NCBI GenBank assembly: GCA_964554655.1 | Contig: CAZKPN010000006.1 | Coordinates: forward strand, 19,909 to 83,908 | Length of the DNA stretch: 64,000 nt | From: an uncultured Aquabacterium sp. | GTDB lineage: Bacteria > Pseudomonadota > Gammaproteobacteria > Burkholderiales > Burkholderiaceae_C | Direction: 5' to 3' | Shown: piece after piece, positions 23,149 to 64,000 of the stretch | Position numbering within the stretch: the stretch's first letter is position 1 | How the letters are laid out: the number at the start of each line of letters is the position of its first letter | The notes under the pieces: model-generated | The model's database searches: none | What the model was told of the DNA's origin: nothing | The model's input: the letters and a program-made list of their open reading frames with translations, nothing else | Program-made: the position numbers and the translations under genes

Positions 23149-24081
23149 TCAGGGGCGAAGACGCATCAAGGTGGACTTGCCGAACAGGCTTTCGACCAAG
23201 TCGACCACCAGTTCGGCGGTTCTGTTTTGCAAGTCCCGGGCCGGGTTCAGCTCCATGATGTCCAGGGACGACAGGCGGCCGGTGTCGGCGATCATTTCCA
23301 TGCACAGCTGGGCTTCGCGGTAGGTGGGGCCGCCGCGCACGGCCGTGCCCACGCCAGGCGCGATGTCGGGGTCCAGAAAATCAACGTCGAAGCTGACGTG
23401 CAGGTGGGTGCGTTCGTCCACCCCCATCAAGGCCTGCTGCATGACGGCGCGCATGCCGTGCTCGTCCAGGTGGCGCATGTCGAAGACTTCCAGGCCCTGG
23501 GCGTGCACGAATTGGCGCTCATGTTCGTCCACGCTGCGCACGCCGATCAGGCGCAGTTCGTCGCGCGACAGGGCCGGCTGCGGCAAGCCGGCGGCCGCCA
23601 GGTGCACCAGGTCATCCGGGCCCAGGCCGAACAGCACGGCCACGGGCATGCCATGCAGGTTGCCGCTGGGGGTGATGTCGCTGGTGTTGAAATCGGCGTG
23701 GGCGTCCAGCCAGATGACGCGCAGGTTCTGGCCGGTGGCGCGGCAATGAGCGGCGACGGCGCCGATCGAACCCATGGCGAGGCAATGGTCGCCGCCCAGC
23801 AGCATGGGCATCTCACCGGTCGCCAAGGCGGCGGACACGGCCTGGAAAACCTGCTGGTTCCAGGCGAGTACTTCCTTCAGGTGGCGGTGCCCATTCACGG
23901 GTGGCTGCCAGGGGTTGGTGGGCCCAATCAGGTTGCCGCCATCGTTGACCGTCAGGCCCAGCCGAGCCAAAGCCTCCGGCAGACCGGCCACTCGCAAGGC
24001 CTCGGGCCCCAGGCCAGCCCCGCGCATGCTGGCCCCCACGTCGGTGGGCGCGCCGATGAGTCTGACGATGCTGTCGTTCAT
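23149..24081 (-). CDS. rocF: Arginase
   Basis: LGGDHC, WLDAHADFN, SGNLHGMP, SFDVDFLDP and ELNP. Confidence 0.92.
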   Translation of the reverse strand: MNDSIVRLIGAPTDVGASMRGAGLGPEALRVAGLPEALARLGLTVNDGGNLIGPTNPWQPPVNGHRHLKEVLAWNQQVFQAVSAALATGEMPMLLGGDHCLAMGSIGAVAAHCRATGQNLRVIWLDAHADFNTSDITPSGNLHGMPVAVLFGLGPDDLVHLAAAGLPQPALSRDELRLIGVRSVDEHERQFVHAQGLEVFDMRHLDEHGMRAVMQQALMGVDERTHLHVSFDVDFLDPDIAPGVGTAVRGGPTYREAQLCMEMIADTGRLSSLDIMELNPARDLQNRTAELVVDLVESLFGKSTLMRLRP

Positions 24082-46043: not shown

Positions 46044-47179
46044 GCCTCCATTGTGGACGACAGGGCAGGCACGACATCCACCCAGATCACGGTGCGGTTG
46101 CGACCACCCTGCTTCGCGCTGTAGAGCGCCTTGTCGGCTCGCTCGATGCAGGCCGACAGGTTTTCGCCGGGTTGATACGCACTCAAGCCTGCAGAGAACG
46201 AAGGACGCAAGGCCAGGTGGTCTTGGGCCATGGTCACGTTCTTCAAGGAGTCGCGCAGCCGCTGGATGCCACGCTCCGCGTCCTGGGCGGTGGTGCCCAC
46301 CAGCACCAGCATGAACTCTTCGCCTCCCCAGCGCGCCAGCACATCGGTTTCGCGGGTCATGGCAGCCGCGTGGCTGGCAAAGTTGCGCAGCACCTCATCG
46401 CCCACGTTGTGGCCATGCGTGTCGTTGATCTGCTTGAAGAAGTCCAGGTCCAGGATGGCCAGGCAGAAGTCGTGCCCCGACGACCGTGACAGGCGCCGCT
46501 GGTGCTCGTCCAGCACCGACATCATGTGACGGCGGTTGTACAGGCCGGTCAGCTCGTCGCGCGTGGCCAGCACCTGGATGCGGTCCAGGGCTTGCGTCAG
46601 CTCTTCTTGCTTGGTGCGCAGCCGGGTGCGCAAGTTGCTCAGTTGCGCGGTCAACACCGAAATGGTGGGCACCGAAGACACCACCAGCGCAAAGTGCACC
46701 GACTCCAGCGCCACCGGGTAGCCCACCGCATCGGTCATGGTCTTGTAGACCATGACGACGCCGGTCAGGACCACGGCATAGGCCCCCGCGATCTTGGCGT
46801 CGCGGGCTTTGAGGTTGAAGATGCCAAAGACCAGCACCAGCGTGAGCAGCATCATCGTGGCGCCATGGAAGACGCCGGTGATGGCATAAGCGGCCACGAT
46901 CCAGGTCAGGGCGGCCAGGATTTGCGGCAAAGTCAGGGAGGGCTCGGCAAAACGCTGGTTCAGGCCGCTGCGCAGGAGCGCATACCAGACCACCACGTTC
47001 AAAGTGATCAGACCGGACAGCAACCCTGCTTCGTCGGCGCGCATCAGGCCTTGCTGCGAGGCGAAGCCCATGATGCCGATGCACAGCACGTACACATTGG
47101 CGGCCATCAGCGAACGGATGATGCGCAACCGTTGTTTGGAATCGGTGCTCAGCAGCACCGCAAGGAGTCGTTGCATCAA
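46040..47179 (-). CDS. Membrane diguanylate cyclase (SadC-like architecture)
   Basis: TM region with RFAEPSLTLPQ; DELTGLYNRR, RETD I-site and GGEEF. Confidence 0.92.
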   Translation of the reverse strand: MMQRLLAVLLSTDSKQRLRIIRSLMAANVYVLCIGIMGFASQQGLMRADEAGLLSGLITLNVVVWYALLRSGLNQRFAEPSLTLPQILAALTWIVAAYAITGVFHGATMMLLTLVLVFGIFNLKARDAKIAGAYAVVLTGVVMVYKTMTDAVGYPVALESVHFALVVSSVPTISVLTAQLSNLRTRLRTKQEELTQALDRIQVLATRDELTGLYNRRHMMSVLDEHQRRLSRSSGHDFCLAILDLDFFKQINDTHGHNVGDEVLRNFASHAAAMTRETDVLARWGGEEFMLVLVGTTAQDAERGIQRLRDSLKNVTMAQDHLALRPSFSAGLSAYQPGENLSACIERADKALYSAKQGGRNRTVIWVDVVPALSSTMEA

Positions 47180-58392: not shown

Positions 58393-59544
58393 TCAGGTGC
58401 TCGCCACCACGGTCTGATTGCGCCCCGAGGCCTTGGCCTGGTAAAGCGCCTTGTCCGCGCGTTCAATCGTTTCGTCCATCGTCTCGCCCAAGCGATGAAC
58501 GGCGATGCCCGCTGAAAACGTCATGCGCAACGCCGGTGCGCTCGCACTGAGCCGCATCCCGGCCAGAACCGAACGCATGCGCTCGACGGCGATGATCGGG
58601 CTGCCCGGCGGCAGGTCGGGCAGCAGCACCAGGAACTCTTCGCCACCCCAGCGCGCCATCACGTCGGTTTCGCGCAGCAAGCACTGGGCCTCGTCGGCAA
58701 AACCCCGCAGCACCTCGTCACCCACGCGGTGGCCCCAGCTGTCATTCACCTGCTTGAAGTGGTCCAGATCGATGTAGGCCAGCGAGAAGGCCAGCATCTC
58801 ACGCTGGCTCAAGGCCGCATGCTGCGCCAGGACATCGAGCATCTTGCGGCGATTGATCAACCCAGTCAGCGGATCACGCGCCGCCATGTCTTGAATGCGC
58901 GCCAGCGCCGAAACCAGATCGGCCGTTTGCCCTCGGAGGTGTTGGCGCATCTTGTGCAGGTGCGCCGCCAGAACCGCCACGGTCGGCACCATCGTCACCA
59001 GGATGATGAAGTACGCCCACTCGACGCGAGGCTGGTAACGCAAGGGGTCATGCAAGCTCTTGGTGGCCATCACCAGCCCCATCACCAGGACGGCATACAG
59101 GCTGGTGATGCGCGCACGCCTTGGGGACAGGTTGAAGGCGCCAAACACCAGCACCAAGGCCACGAACATGAGCAGGCCTCCATGCGCTTCGCTGGTGGCG
59201 CCATAGCAACCGGCAATCCAGGTCAAGGCCGCCAGAACCTGGGGCAAGGTCAATGCCGGATCGGCAAACCGCAGGTTGAAACCAGTGCGCAAGGCCACAT
59301 AAAAGGCCAGGTTCGAGGCGATCATGACGCACGACAAGGCCCACCCCTCAACGGGGTCCATCAGCTCGGTGTGGATCGCATAGGCGATCAGGGCCACACA
59401 CATGACCACCACCAAGGCTGACCAGAGCGAACGCACGATGCGGGTTCGCTGCTCAGGCGCCGAGGTCAGGAAGAAGGTGGCGATCTTGTGCCAGAGCAGA
59501 GGCTCTTTGGGCCCAAGCTGCTGAGCCATGGCATGGGACTGCAC
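58393..59544 (-). CDS. Membrane diguanylate cyclase, paralog of 46040-47179
   Basis: RFADPALTLPQ TM domain; DPLTGLINRR, RETD I-site and GGEEF. Confidence 0.92.
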   Translation of the reverse strand: MQSHAMAQQLGPKEPLLWHKIATFFLTSAPEQRTRIVRSLWSALVVVMCVALIAYAIHTELMDPVEGWALSCVMIASNLAFYVALRTGFNLRFADPALTLPQVLAALTWIAGCYGATSEAHGGLLMFVALVLVFGAFNLSPRRARITSLYAVLVMGLVMATKSLHDPLRYQPRVEWAYFIILVTMVPTVAVLAAHLHKMRQHLRGQTADLVSALARIQDMAARDPLTGLINRRKMLDVLAQHAALSQREMLAFSLAYIDLDHFKQVNDSWGHRVGDEVLRGFADEAQCLLRETDVMARWGGEEFLVLLPDLPPGSPIIAVERMRSVLAGMRLSASAPALRMTFSAGIAVHRLGETMDETIERADKALYQAKASGRNQTVVAST

Positions 59545-59683
59545 GCTCAAGCGCCTGTTTCTGCGAGTGTCATTGGGGCAACTGCTTTTCCATGCGTCAA
59601 TCAAACAGGCTGAATGTGCGGTGTTGCATCAAGTTTGAACAGGATTCCTGGTGACAAGAGGGGTTCGTGCGTGACAACCTCAC

Positions 59684-60838
59684 TCACGGCGCGCCCTTCA
59701 GCAAATCATCCATCATCGCCTTCACCGCCTTCATCTGCGGTGCCGACTGCCTGGCAAAGTTCGGCGCCCCCGGGTTCAAGGCCGCGTACTTCTCGGTGTA
59801 GCCCCAGAAATCCCAGCACCCTTTCGGGTTGAACTGGTACGGGCTGAAGAAGTTGCCCTTGGTGCTGGGCTTGACCTGCGGGTACAGCACCACGATGCGC
59901 CCCGCTTCGGCCCAGCGGTTGTAGCCCGCTTCTTTCACGAACTGCAGGCCAAACTTCTGGCCATCCTGCACAAAGCTCTGCCCTTGCTCGCACCCATGGA
60001 AAGCCACGTGCAAGCGGCACCGGGCACCCGGCTGTTCGCAGGCCTTGGGCACATACACCCAACCGGTGCTGTCCAGACTGCTGAACACGGTGGGGTCATC
60101 GTAGGTGGTCTGCTTGAACTGCTTCAAGGCACCCGCATCGGCCGTGCCGGCTTGCATCGCGGGCGTGCTGGGGTACAGCCATTTCAGCAACTCACCCGCC
60201 GCGTCCACATTGCATTGCGTCAGGAAAGGGGTGTGGGTCAGGCTGCAAGCCTGGGTGGCCAGCGGGCTGGGAAAGCCATGCCCCGCCTCGGGGTTGGCCT
60301 CGTGGTGCACCTGCGCTGCAGGCACGCCCAAACGCTGGTAGAACTTTTCGGCCGCCTTCACCAGTTGGGCGTCCACCACGTGGTCCTGGCCGCCCGAGAA
60401 CAACCAGATGCGGTGGTTCTTCAAGTGGAAGGTGCCATCAATGGCCTGGGCGCTGGTGTTGCCCTTCACCGCCTTCTCGCTGAACGCCAGGTACACATCG
60501 GGGTTGAACACCTGGCAACCCGCGCCCATGGCCTTCATCGCACTCAGCAAGAAGTTCTGCTCGGCCGGGCACGAGCAGTTGAACATGGCGGCCGACACGC
60601 TGCCGCGTGAACAACCATAGGGCCCACCAGCCAACACCGCCGCGCCCGACAAGGACGCCGAGTACGCCACCTGGAACTGCCCGGCCATGTAGGCACCAGA
60701 AGACAGGCCCGACACGGTCACCGCGTCGCGCTGCAAACCCAGCGCGGGCAGGCGGGACAAGGCCTGGGACTGAACAGCCGCGCTCAAGGACAAGCCCATG
60801 AGCACCGCACCAAACCTCAACACTGCTGGGGTGAACAT
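59684..60838 (-). CDS. phaZ: Exported PHB depolymerase, type II catalytic domain, no substrate-binding domain
   Basis: Signal peptide; VTVSGLSSGAYMA lipase box, AGGPYGC, SGGQD (Asp), AGHGFP (His), LHVAFHGC oxyanion His and NPKGCWDFWG. Confidence 0.82.
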   Translation of the reverse strand: MFTPAVLRFGAVLMGLSLSAAVQSQALSRLPALGLQRDAVTVSGLSSGAYMAGQFQVAYSASLSGAAVLAGGPYGCSRGSVSAAMFNCSCPAEQNFLLSAMKAMGAGCQVFNPDVYLAFSEKAVKGNTSAQAIDGTFHLKNHRIWLFSGGQDHVVDAQLVKAAEKFYQRLGVPAAQVHHEANPEAGHGFPSPLATQACSLTHTPFLTQCNVDAAGELLKWLYPSTPAMQAGTADAGALKQFKQTTYDDPTVFSSLDSTGWVYVPKACEQPGARCRLHVAFHGCEQGQSFVQDGQKFGLQFVKEAGYNRWAEAGRIVVLYPQVKPSTKGNFFSPYQFNPKGCWDFWGYTEKYAALNPGAPNFARQSAPQMKAVKAMMDDLLKGAP

Positions 60839-60865
60839 GGGCAAGCTCCGCTGATAAACATTGAT

Positions 60866-60880
60866 TGCTGCATTGCAGCA
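60866..60880. promoter_or_regulatory. PhaR-like operator upstream of phaZ
   Basis: Perfect inverted repeat TGCTGCA-T-TGCAGCA containing CTGC-N3-GCAG, 27 nt upstream of ATG 60838. Confidence 0.65.
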
Positions 60881-60948
60881 TTTTTAAGCAGCTTACCGCC
60901 GACCCACCCCAGGTGTAAAGCCCTGCTGCCCTGCCCGTTCAGTTCAGT

Positions 60949-61428
60949 TCAGAGAAACCGCTCCAGCAAACGCCGCGAAGGCGCGTCCAGCGCCAGCCGG
61001 TCGCGCACTGAAAACTGCACGCCATGGCTGCTGGTGATCAGCAAAGCACCACCCGCCAACCGGCGGATGTCGTCCTCGCTTTTGAGCACGAAGATGGCGG
61101 GGCCACGGTCGGTCGCCACCGCCCAGGTGCTGGGCGTGCCGAAGGTGGACACCGCCTCCAACCGCTCGATCACCGGGGTGAACTCGCGCAGGGCCAGCTC
61201 CTCTTGCAGCATGTGGCGCGGTGCCTCGGGCAGCGCGCTCAGGCGCGTGATCCAGGCCAACTCGTGGCCATGGGTGTCCACCAGCGAGACACCCTCGTCG
61301 GGCGCGGCGATCGGGAAGGCCCGCACCGGCGTCACGCCCTCGTGGTGCACGCCTTGGGCATCGGTGAGCACCAGGCGGCCAAAGGCGTCGCGGGCCAGCG
61401 TGAACATCATCATTACGTCGCCGCTCAT
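60949..61428 (-). CDS. DUF1854 family protein (cyanophycin-cluster associated)
   Basis: VTPVRAFPIAAPDEGVSL, ELALREFTPVI, STFGTPSTW.V.TDRG and F.LKSEDDIRRL; ATGA overlap with the ABC gene. Confidence 0.85.
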   Translation of the reverse strand: MSGDVMMMFTLARDAFGRLVLTDAQGVHHEGVTPVRAFPIAAPDEGVSLVDTHGHELAWITRLSALPEAPRHMLQEELALREFTPVIERLEAVSTFGTPSTWAVATDRGPAIFVLKSEDDIRRLAGGALLITSSHGVQFSVRDRLALDAPSRRLLERFL

Positions 61429-63692
61429 GCCAGAAACTCCTTCTCGGCCTGTTGTTCCTTGCGCGCCTGGGCATCGTACAAGCGCCAGTAGGCGCCCCGT
61501 TGGGCCATCAGCTCGTCGTGCGGTCCCACTTCAACCACGCGGCCCCGGTCCATCACCACCAGGCGATCGGCCTTGCGCAGCGTGGACAGGCGGTGGGCGA
61601 TGGCGATGGTGGTGCGGCCTTGCACCAGGTTGTCCAGCGCCTTCTGAATTTCCTTCTCCGTCTCGGTGTCCACGGAAGAGGTGGCCTCGTCCAGGATCAG
61701 GATGCGCGGATCGATCAGCAGTGCCCGCGCGATCGAGATGCGCTGGCGTTCACCGCCCGACAGGCCCTGGCCGCGCTCGCCCACCAGCGAGTCGTAGCCT
61801 TGCGGCAGGCGCAAGATGAACTCGTGCGCATGTGCGGCGCGAGCCGCCGCCACGATCTCGGCGCGTGTGGCCTCGGGCTTGCCATAGGCGATGTTCTCGG
61901 CGATGGTGCCAAAGAAGAGGAATGGCTCTTGCAGCACCAGCCCGATGTGGCGCCTGAAATCGGCCACGCCCACGCGGCGGATGTCCGTGCCATCGATGCG
62001 GATGGCGCCTTCGCTCACGTCGTAGAAGCGGCAGATCAGGTTGACCAAGGTGCTCTTGCCCGAACCGCTGTGGCCCACCAGGCCGATCATCTCGCCCGGC
62101 TGGATGTCCAGGCTCAGGTCGCGGATCACGGCGCGGCTGCCGTAGCGAAAGCCGATGCCTTCCATCTGCAATCGGCCCTGCACCGTGGGCAGTGCCACCG
62201 GGTGCGTGGGCTCGGGCACGTTCGAGACGTGGTCCAGGATGTCGAAGATGCGCTTGGCGCCGGCCGCCGCTTTTTGCGTGACCGACACGATGCGGCTCAT
62301 CGAATCCAGCCGGCCGTAAAAGCGCCCGATGTAGGCGATGAAAGCGGTGAGCACGCCCACCGTGATCTGCTGGTGCGACACCAGCCAGATGCCAAAGGCC
62401 CACACCACCAGCAGCCCGATCTCGGTCATCAAGGACACCGTGGGAGAGAACAGCGACCAGGTCTTGTTGAGCTTGTCGTTGATCTCCAGGTTGTGCCAGT
62501 TGGCATCCTTGAAGCGCTTGGCCTCGCGCTGCTCTTGCGCAAAGGCCTTGACCACGCGGATGCCGGGGATGGTGTCGGCCAGCACATTGGTGACCTCGCC
62601 CCAGACGCGGTCGATCTTTTCAAAGCCGGTGCGCAGGCGGTCGCGCACCAGATGGATCAGCCAGGCGATGAAGGGCAGCGGCAGCAAAGTCACCAGGGCC
62701 AGCCAGGGGTTGATCGAGAACAGGATGATCGCTGTCATGGTGATCATGAGCACATCGGTGGCGAAATCGAGCGCGTGCAGGGACAGGAAGACGCTGATGC
62801 GGTCCGTCTCGGAGCCGATGCGCGACATCAGATCCCCCGTGCGCTTGGTGCCGAAATACTCCAGCGACAGGTTCAGCAGGTGCTCGAAGGTGGAGGTGCG
62901 CAGGTCCGCGCTGATGCGCTCGGACACCAGGGCCAGCACGTAGGTGCGCGCCCAGCCCAGGCTCCAGGCCAGCAGGGCCGAAATCAGCAAGCCACCCAGC
63001 AAGGCGGCCACATACCAGGTGTCGATGGTCTGGCCACTCTGGAAGGGGATCAGCACCTTGTCCATCAGCGGGATGCTGAGGTAGGGCGGCACCAGGGTGG
63101 CGGCGGTCGAGGCCAGGGTCAGGCCGAATCCCAGCGCCAGTTTGCCCTGGTAGGGCCTGGCAAAGCGCCACAGCCGCAGCAGCACCCAGGTTGAGGGCGG
63201 CTCGTCGACACTGCGGTCGCAGGCGGGGCATTCATCGGTGTCGGGCGGCAGTGGGGCGTGGCAGCTGGGGCACAGCGGCAAGCCGTCGTCATCCAAGGTT
63301 GGCGGGGCGCCGGCTTTCAGCAGTGCCTGCTGGCGGTCGAAAAATGTCTGAAAACCTTGGGCGGCTGGACCCAGGGCCATGGTGAAGTGCCAATGCGCCA
63401 ACCGCTGGTGCACATCGTGCAATTCCAGGGTGCCGACCCCGGCATGGTCAACATGCCGCAAGACCAAGCCGTCGGCCAGGGGCCAGGACCGCCAGGCGCC
63501 GTCTGGGGCGTCCTGGGAGAGAACACGGCGGTCAGTCAGCACCAAAACCCCCTGGGAAAACCGCAAGCGCGGGTCCAGGTCAACCATCAGGGTGGCTAAA
63601 ACGTTCTCTTCTTTTGCAAGCTGGGCCTGCAGGCCTGCCTGAGCGTGTTTGGCCAGGGCCCCGCGAGCGTCAACAGGATGATGATGTTGCAT
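61425..63692 (-). CDS. ABC transporter (TMD+NBD fusion) with extra N-terminal domain and Zn-ribbon, cyanophycin-cluster associated
   Basis: GHSGSGKST, LSGGERQR and ILILDEA; exporter-type TMD; CPSC-x10-CPAC at 63219-63272. Confidence 0.9.
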   Translation of the reverse strand: MQHHHPVDARGALAKHAQAGLQAQLAKEENVLATLMVDLDPRLRFSQGVLVLTDRRVLSQDAPDGAWRSWPLADGLVLRHVDHAGVGTLELHDVHQRLAHWHFTMALGPAAQGFQTFFDRQQALLKAGAPPTLDDDGLPLCPSCHAPLPPDTDECPACDRSVDEPPSTWVLLRLWRFARPYQGKLALGFGLTLASTAATLVPPYLSIPLMDKVLIPFQSGQTIDTWYVAALLGGLLISALLAWSLGWARTYVLALVSERISADLRTSTFEHLLNLSLEYFGTKRTGDLMSRIGSETDRISVFLSLHALDFATDVLMITMTAIILFSINPWLALVTLLPLPFIAWLIHLVRDRLRTGFEKIDRVWGEVTNVLADTIPGIRVVKAFAQEQREAKRFKDANWHNLEINDKLNKTWSLFSPTVSLMTEIGLLVVWAFGIWLVSHQQITVGVLTAFIAYIGRFYGRLDSMSRIVSVTQKAAAGAKRIFDILDHVSNVPEPTHPVALPTVQGRLQMEGIGFRYGSRAVIRDLSLDIQPGEMIGLVGHSGSGKSTLVNLICRFYDVSEGAIRIDGTDIRRVGVADFRRHIGLVLQEPFLFFGTIAENIAYGKPEATRAEIVAAARAAHAHEFILRLPQGYDSLVGERGQGLSGGERQRISIARALLIDPRILILDEATSSVDTETEKEIQKALDNLVQGRTTIAIAHRLSTLRKADRLVVMDRGRVVEVGPHDELMAQRGAYWRLYDAQARKEQQAEKEFLA

Positions 63693-63830
63693 TTTGATTT
63701 CGTAGCGCAATCGCGGATTCTCGCCGAATCGGTGCCACTTGCGGCCAGGGTGGCTGTGAGCAGCCCCCGTGTCCTCAAGCACAATCCCGGGTCACGCGCC
63801 GCCTGAACGGTCGCCAGAACGCACAAGAAC

Positions 63831-64000
63831 ATGACAAGAATGGACGACATCAAACTGCTGCGCATCAATTATTTGCGCGGCCCCAATGTCTGGACCTACC
63901 GCCCCGTGCTGGAAGTCTGGCTGGATTTGGGTTTGCTGGAAGATTACCCCTCCAACCTCCTGCCGGGCTTCAACGACCGGCTGGTGGCGCAGTTGCCGGC
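63831..64000 (+). CDS. cphA: Cyanophycin synthetase family protein, N-terminus (truncated by window edge)
   Basis: MTRMDDIKLLRINYLRGPNVWTYRPVLEVWLDLGLLEDYPSNLLPGFNDRL matches the CphA N-domain start (LRGPN.W...E...SN..PGF.ERL) as recalled; not in the ORF track because no stop is reached. Confidence 0.78.
   Translation, partial: MTRMDDIKLLRINYLRGPNVWTYRPVLEVWLDLGLLEDYPSNLLPGFNDRLVAQLP

Follow-up and report, generated by a model that had tools for sequence, protein, structure and literature searches.

What does the pump encoded beside the cyanophycin synthetases of many Betaproteobacteria transport, and in which direction? We address this question from a locus of an uncultured Aquabacterium sp. 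(assembly GCA_964554655.1, contig CAZKPN010000006.1, positions 19,909–83,908, forward strand), in which a gene for an ATP-binding cassette (ABC) transporter and a gene for a DUF1854 protein occupy, with the start of a cyanophycin synthetase-like gene, positions 60949–64000 of the 64,000-nucleotide stretch analyzed; this whole stretch is called the window hereafter, and all positions refer to it unless a locus is named. The gene pair is an orthologue of a catalogued ABC/DUF1854 pair, hence an ordinary member of a system already known, and we give about an even chance to the proposition that the pump exports the product of the neighbouring synthetases across the inner membrane. The system can be called known because curated NCBIfam equivalog models and a published genetic hypothesis exist for it. 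In two Betaproteobacteria, the genes encoding DUF1854, the ABC protein, the synthetase CphA and its paralogue CphA' are cofit, and mutants point to a role of these genes in motility in Acidovorax or display pleiotropic stress phenotypes; the ABC and DUF1854 proteins are fused in a few genomes, many Betaproteobacteria are without a cyanophycinase, and the authors proposed export of the polymer to the cell envelope (Price et al., bioRxiv 10.1101/072470). A descriptive report on activated-sludge taxa mentions two cphA copies and an ABC transporter with no cphB, and further descriptive reports state that cyanophycinase is absent from Betaproteobacteria carrying cphA and cphA'. We found nothing newer on the transporter than Price et al. 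and such descriptive genome or metagenome reports, and in the literature searched DUF1854 is mentioned by Price et al. only (bioRxiv 10.1101/072470). A first-pass annotation of the window had stated that no substrate or mechanism was defined for this pair; this is correct in that biochemistry is lacking, but it overlooked the published cofitness, the export proposal and the curated models. The window therefore contributes another orthologue and structural detail, not a new system.

The ABC gene (61425–63692, minus strand) encodes a half-transporter of 755 residues, stop codon excluded, composed of a predicted PH-like domain, a putative zinc ribbon, a transmembrane domain (TMD) of six helices and a nucleotide-binding domain (NBD). 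It is followed on the same strand by the DUF1854 gene (60949–61428, minus strand; 159 residues), which it overlaps by 4 bp: the plus-strand tcat at 61425–61428 reads ATGA on the coding strand and holds the ABC stop and the DUF1854 start codon, as seen from both the open reading frame (ORF) coordinates and the sequence, an arrangement that would allow translational coupling of the two genes. The longest ABC ORF (61425–63782), read from the first GTG, has 785 residues; we preferred the 755-residue reading from the ATG at 63692, because its MQHHH start is common to homologues from many genera. An intergenic region of 138 bp (63693–63830, no strand) separates this start from a divergent plus-strand ORF beginning at 63831, of which 56 codons are visible (63831–64000) and which continues beyond the window. 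Every sequence feature stated in the first-pass annotation is confirmed: the 755-residue TMD-NBD fusion with its intact Walker A, Walker B and signature motifs, the additional beta-rich domain and the CxxC-x10-CxxC ribbon ahead of the first transmembrane helix (TM1), the ATGA overlap, the divergent region of 138 bp, and the lack of a visible cphB.

The two proteins are assigned to the catalogued module with wide margins. On NF052233 ("cyanophycin metabolism-associated ABC transporter"), the ABC protein scores 1406.9 bits against an equivalog cut-off of 880, its residues 6–751 aligning to model positions 8–752 of 766; on NF052234 ("cyanophycin metabolism-associated DUF1854 family protein"), the DUF1854 protein scores 227 bits against a cut-off of 150, and it matches Pfam PF08909 over its full length (E 8.5e-50, 168 bits, cut-off 26.8). 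Full-length matches, operonic pairing, adjacency to cphA' and cphA, and absence of cphB are all shared with the module described by these models and by Price et al., from which nothing essential differs here, the host being an uncultured Aquabacterium/Rubrivivax-like freshwater or groundwater bacterium. The window sequence occurs in sequencing runs of freshwater, groundwater and sediment metagenomes. A look-up of the exact ABC protein returned no record, and close relatives were used instead; that of the exact DUF1854 protein returned one 3.5-kb contig only, which ends short of cphA.

How constant is the association with cyanophycin synthetases? With each GTDB species represented by one genome, a scan yielded at least 578 genomes with a DUF1854 relative, from which the 80 best loci (58–85% identity) were used; neighbour clustering covered about 85 loci. 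The 80 loci belong to Burkholderiales and allies (Aquabacterium, Hydrogenophaga, Polaromonas, Pelomonas/Roseateles, Pandoraea, Noviherbaspirillum, Accumulibacter and others), and the closest relatives of the window, with DUF1854 proteins 86–92% identical, are Rubrivivax/Aquabacterium-like genomes and metagenomes. Wherever the flank is sufficient, cphA' and then cphA run in one direction, and the ABC and then the DUF1854 gene in the other, with four exceptions: all four genes are colinear in L019, L064 and L081, and no separate match to a full-length cphA was seen in L032 (Noviherbaspirillum denitrificans). The conserved neighbour families are the ABC protein (75 loci), CphA/CphA' (66 loci, 112 members) and DUF1854 (60 loci); since the next family occurs in just 13 loci, no catabolic enzyme is conserved with the module, and indeed no conserved cyanophycinase or dipeptidase was found beside it in the clustered loci. 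Nor did we find, among the ORFs of the 64-kb window, any Peptidase_S51, Asparaginase_2 or AstE_AspA protein; there, the Pfam sweep covered 40 ORFs at 122–54165, those of the 54–61 kb interval being judged by their translations and family matches.

The association also extends to more distant members. When 1.84 billion representative proteins were searched with a profile, 2060 clusters (50% identity) were obtained at E ≤ 1e-3, of which 181 at E ≤ 1e-30; the sample of distant members whose context was considered is small, single distant queries giving one or two loci each. In Pirellula (Planctomycetota), a single cphA of 903 residues is divergent from an ABC gene of 772 residues followed by DUF1854, and the linkage to cphA is still present at 40% DUF1854 identity. 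A natural fusion of 913 residues, which unites PH-like domain, zinc ribbon, TMD, NBD and DUF1854, is likewise divergent from a single cphA of 890 residues. The pairing with betaproteobacterial cyanophycin synthetases that the first-pass annotation described is thus borne out in practically all related loci whose flanks are long enough, and it reaches Planctomycetota. One member of the small distant sample, an ABC-DUF1854 fusion of 866 residues (L086:8236–10836), lacks a cphA for about 8 kb in both directions, so the link, which spans phyla, is probably not absolute. In this fusion, the N-terminal region is shorter and a zinc ribbon is missing; Ser/Thr kinase, PP2C and WD40 genes lie around the gene, which may represent a cyanophycin-independent branch of the family. 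It is the kind of locus expected if the pair had a function unrelated to cyanophycin, its adjacency to the synthetases reflecting shared regulation or hitch-hiking, and contexts were looked at for only a minority of the 2060 clusters. However, the linkage is kept across phyla and gene-order variants, no other neighbour is conserved and the genes are cofit in two species, and we consider this explanation highly improbable.

The divergent neighbour had been described as a cphA-like gene. The 56 residues of its product that lie within the window correspond to the N-terminal part of cyanophycin synthetases (NF010623, E 6.5e-15; TIGR02068, E 1.9e-9) and are nearly identical to the start of a CphA paralogue of 735 residues in a Rubrivivax metagenome-assembled genome (L002). 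In close relatives, the ABC gene adjoins a paralogue of 732–735 residues, followed by another of 862 residues. The 862-residue paralogue of these relatives contains the N, ATP-grasp and Mur-ligase M and C domains and the P-loop TGTNGKTT of a complete CphA1, and reaches 968 bits against the TIGR02068 cut-off of 850, whereas the 735-residue paralogue of L002, aligned to model positions 1–720, scores 723 bits, below the cut-off, is without Mur_ligase_C and carries TGSQGTNT in place of the P-loop. Because the 56 residues match the truncated, P-loop-less paralogue, the neighbour is CphA' and not a full cphA; its assignment to the synthetase family is supported, and the full cphA is the next gene in relatives. 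In CphA', the Asp-adding G domain looks intact from its sequence, but the M domain, responsible for adding Arg, is predicted inactive. The identity of this neighbour may thus affect what the polymer is.

The transporter core itself is typical. The ABC_membrane domain spans residues 186–460 (62313–63137, minus strand; E 1e-45, profile positions 2–272 of 274), in agreement with the hydropathy peaks, and ABC_tran residues 524–672 (E 1e-34) within an NBD that extends over about residues 509–755 (61428–62168, minus strand) and has intact Walker A (GHSGSGKS at 540), signature (LSGGE at 644), Walker B (ILILDE at 664) and H-loop (AHR at 699) motifs. The best family models other than its own are MsbA, HlyB, HepA, TAP and NdvA. 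Its closest sequence relatives in the PDB are the halves of ABCB1/P-glycoprotein, TM287/288, MsbA and Sav1866, which identifies it as an ABCB/MsbA-type (type IV) exporter half-transporter, presumably working as a homodimer. The core is 52–62% identical between Betaproteobacteria, Planctomycetota and other lineages.

What distinguishes the protein is the extension of 175 residues that precedes TM1. Because there are six transmembrane helices and the NBD must be cytoplasmic, the PH-like domain and the zinc ribbon of this extension are cytoplasmic as well. An AlphaFold2 single-chain model of the extension, built from an alignment of 45 sequences, has a mean predicted local distance difference test score (pLDDT) of 87, reaching about 97 over residues 20–120, and consists of seven strands followed by a long helix. 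In a Foldseek comparison with the PDB, all top matches are PH, GRAM, PTB or FERM-F3 domains (probability up to 1.00, E from 3.7e-3), and the domain (about residues 28–127; 63312–63611, minus strand) is predicted with high confidence to adopt a PH-like fold. No Pfam model covers it, the first 175 residues giving weak zinc-ribbon matches only, and a search by sequence for a solved structure of this domain found none. It is retained in all 80 loci; its identity averages 50%, whereas in most loci the protein as a whole is 70–80% identical, and it diverges faster than the remainder of the ABC protein. Both this domain and DUF1854 are acidic (net charges −8 and −5, respectively).

Between the PH-like domain and TM1, the translation contains the ribbon motif C141-P-S-C144-x10-C155-P-A-C158 (residues 141–158; 63219–63272, minus strand). 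Pfam DZR and Zn_Ribbon_1 match it weakly (E 0.004–0.008, below cut-off), and we regard it as a putative metal site. The motif is present in 63 of the 80 related loci, with a spacer of x10 or x13, while an acidic linker replaces it in the ABC N-terminal region of the other 17 (L013, L016, L018, L026, L028, L029, L040–L042, L047, L053, L061, L063, L068, L070, L074 and L084), indicating that the ribbon is not essential to the function of the family. One such strongly acidic linker reads EEDDGEESSFDFGE; the clade concerned includes Pelomonas/Roseateles and retains the PH-like domain.

The DUF1854 protein contains no hydrophobic segment (maximum 19-residue hydropathy 0.9) and is, judging from this, a soluble cytoplasmic partner. 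Its AlphaFold2 model (pLDDT 88, predicted template modelling score 0.57) has two beta-rich lobes of about six strands each, and each lobe finishes with a helix. Neither sequence nor profile searches against the PDB gave a match. We also considered that DUF1854 might be homologous to the PH-like domain, or its two lobes to each other, and rejected both possibilities (hhalign probabilities 1–9%). The ABC-DUF1854 junction permits a 4-bp overlap in 39 related loci, about half, and measures at most 41 bp in most others. In the natural fusions P0277 and P0311, DUF1854 is joined C-terminally to the NBD. Since some lineages fuse it directly in this manner, DUF1854 is most likely located at the NBDs, and both accessory modules of the pump are cytoplasmic.

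Regulatory domains of the TOBE and C2 types sit at the NBD C-terminus, as DUF1854 does in these fusions. The pump could be imagined to move a small molecule (beta-Asp-Arg, arginine, aspartate or a by-product), by export or import, and to balance pools of precursors or degradation products, the PH-like domain and DUF1854 then acting as allosteric ligand sensors, much as MalK, ModC and MetN carry regulatory domains at their C-termini. Besides the natural fusions, two observations are in line with this explanation: the ABC core falls into a broad class of multidrug, lipid and peptide exporters and has no polymer-specific feature, and no outer-membrane route is conserved. The first-pass annotation had left three options side by side, namely export, mobilization of the dipeptide and sensing of granules; the last two found no specific support here, export fits best, and we hold transport of a small molecule to be unlikely, although the best placed of the alternatives.

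Export of the CphA/CphA' product is favoured because the pump has an ABCB/MsbA-type exporter core and two cytoplasm-facing modules of a binding type, because it is tied to the synthetases in a four-gene module in which no catabolic gene is conserved, and because of the reported cofitness, which also argues that the module needs DUF1854 and that this protein is not a negative regulator. We infer from the module as a whole in which direction the pump works, what it carries and how its two accessory modules contribute. CphA, with complete N, G and M domains, and CphA', with N and G domains and a truncated, P-loop-less M domain, would make in the cytoplasm a polyamide with an Asp backbone, which could be cyanophycin itself, a variant of cyanophycin or an oligomer. 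The PH-like domain and/or DUF1854, which by analogy with other exporters are probably a substrate receptor or a synthetase dock, would capture the polymer or dock the synthetase; ATP hydrolysis would then move the polymer over the inner membrane into the cell envelope, where it would have a structural or protective role instead of being a cytoplasmic nitrogen store.

Several known exporters provide parts of such a scheme. HlyB-type pumps of type I secretion and PCAT exporters of bacteriocins share the ABCB-type core (TIGR01846, E 2.6e-130) and also have a cytoplasmic domain before TM1. The N-domains of HlyB (C39-like) and of PCATs (C39 peptidase) bind the polypeptide substrate. The N-domain is PH-like here, not C39-like, no membrane-fusion or outer-membrane partner is conserved nearby, and on the model of HlyB-family type I secretion the ABC protein scores 436 bits, well under the cut-off of 726. 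In the Wzm/Wzt exporter of O-antigen, a C-terminal carbohydrate-binding module on the NBD of Wzt recognizes the finished polymer. A beta-rich module joined to the NBD C-terminus, or associated with it, could similarly select a polymer made in the cytoplasm here, but this is a functional analogy only, as Wzm/Wzt belongs to another ABC fold class and has a separate TMD subunit, and no similarity to DUF1854 in sequence or structure was detected. The exporters of cyclic beta-glucan (NdvA/ChvA) and of the heterocyst envelope polysaccharide (HepA) are single-polypeptide TMD-NBD proteins acting on polymers made in the cytoplasm, and match at E of about 1e-120; they are without the PH-like/zinc-ribbon extension and DUF1854, and the ABC protein scores under their cut-offs. 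Finally, classical cyanophycin clusters, in which cphA is accompanied by cphB and an isoaspartyl dipeptidase or CphZ, share the synthetase family. They differ from the present module, in which a second, truncated synthetase and an exporter are found, and no cyanophycinase or dipeptidase is present in the window or conserved in the clustered loci.

A number of points weigh against export of the polymer. Exporter-fold ABC proteins can import, as do IrtAB and YbtPQ. No membrane-fusion, periplasmic or outer-membrane partner is conserved in the clustered loci, which leaves the fate of an exported polymer unexplained. No structural neighbour of DUF1854 pointing to a ligand was found, the zinc ribbon is dispensable in 17 of the 80 relatives, and the fusion of L086 does without a nearby cphA. 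The published basis for export is mutant genetics, and not a transport assay, the identification of a substrate or a structure; moreover, the product of the betaproteobacterial CphA/CphA' pair is uncertain, and the Cupriavidus necator enzymes gave no cyanophycin according to work cited in the same preprint (bioRxiv 10.1101/072470). The fuller proposal, in which cyanophycin or a CphA/CphA' variant is a secreted envelope polyamide, ABC/DUF1854 a dedicated non-ribosomal polyamide secretion system, and the PH-like domain and the structurally unmatched DUF1854 a cytoplasmic polymer receptor or synthetase dock, is a tentative one, and we rate its chances somewhat lower than those of export as such.

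The same accessory modules would also suit a membrane scaffold or regulator, which would hold CphA/CphA' at the inner membrane, or activate them there, by means of the PH-like domain and DUF1854, the binding and hydrolysis of ATP serving as a switch on polymerization or granule nucleation; the idea of sensing granules, mentioned above, is of this kind. Two protein- or ligand-binding modules on the cytoplasmic face, strict linkage to the synthetase genes through a divergent promoter or an operon, and cofitness, which is equally expected if the synthetases need a scaffold, are all compatible with it. On the other hand, the complete ABC_membrane match, the intact NBD motifs and the degree of core conservation across lineages are those of a typical active transporter, and CphA1 enzymes of other bacteria polymerize in vitro without a membrane partner. 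A scaffold is thus, to our judgment, rather improbable, slightly more so than transport of a small molecule; a small share of the probability is assigned to none of the explanations considered.

Preference for export has consequences beyond this locus. Cyanophycin is usually treated as an intracellular reserve of nitrogen and carbon. Hundreds of Burkholderiales species and some Planctomycetota nevertheless have synthetase genes and no cyanophycinase, with a strictly linked exporter instead. If the polymer is indeed exported, non-cyanobacterial cyanophycin would be an envelope material tied to stress tolerance and motility, which would matter for recovering or producing cyanophycin from wastewater bacteria. 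Whether the polymer is exported has already been asked in the literature, and tractable strains in which to test it exist.

Four close relatives share 91% identity over the divergent intergenic region. This region contains a palindrome, GATTC-N5-GAATC (63716–63730), which lies 24–38 nt before the ABC start codon, where the sequence does not vary between the window, L002, L003 and L006; this palindrome could be an operator or a hairpin in the 5' untranslated region. No sigma-70 consensus promoter was found in 63693–63830, and an Rfam search over 60700–64000 detected no riboswitch or other known RNA. No RNA-seq run contained the window sequence, the matching runs being all metagenomic DNA.

The remainder of the window is ordinary chromosomal sequence (64% GC), with biotin-synthesis-type genes, hemA, prfA, prmC, sodB, proS, proB, obg, a hybrid CHASE sensor kinase, several GGDEF/EAL proteins and a leucine-catabolism (liu) cluster at 51–58 kb. 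A gene for a type-2 extracellular polyhydroxyalkanoate (PHA) depolymerase lies directly downstream of DUF1854. In the closest relatives, a block of about 4 kb (L002:10487–14395) that contains DUF5666, DUF6502, CHRD and PEP-CTERM-like genes and an ORF of 184 residues with no Pfam match separates these two genes; it is absent from the window (60845–60948), where DUF1854 directly adjoins the depolymerase gene, revealing an indel at this junction. On the other side of the module, two genes downstream of the full cphA in L002 (1998–2294, minus strand), and also in L003 and L006, an ORF of 99 residues follows one of 123 residues that has no family match. It weakly matches the N- and C-terminal motifs of flagellar rod and hook proteins of the FlgE/FlgC type (E 4e-9 to 1e-3) and is far too short for a rod protein; we mention it beside the motility phenotype reported for the cphA module (bioRxiv 10.1101/072470). 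Four GGDEF proteins are encoded in the 64 kb (38284–39429, 39393–42260, 46043–47179 and 58393–59604), including one with a PAS-PAS-GGDEF-EAL architecture and a membrane-bound one two genes away from DUF1854. Two ORFs, 36061–38271 (plus strand, 737 residues) and 44538–46043 (minus strand, 502 residues), have coding-like G+C contents at third codon positions (0.88 and 0.76, respectively) and no Pfam match at E ≤ 1e-5. Lastly, an arginase-family gene (23152–24081, minus strand; E 3e-71), whose family membership points to catabolism of arginine or of a guanidino compound, adjoins a gene of the LOG/"lysine decarboxylase" family about 37 kb from the cyanophycin module.

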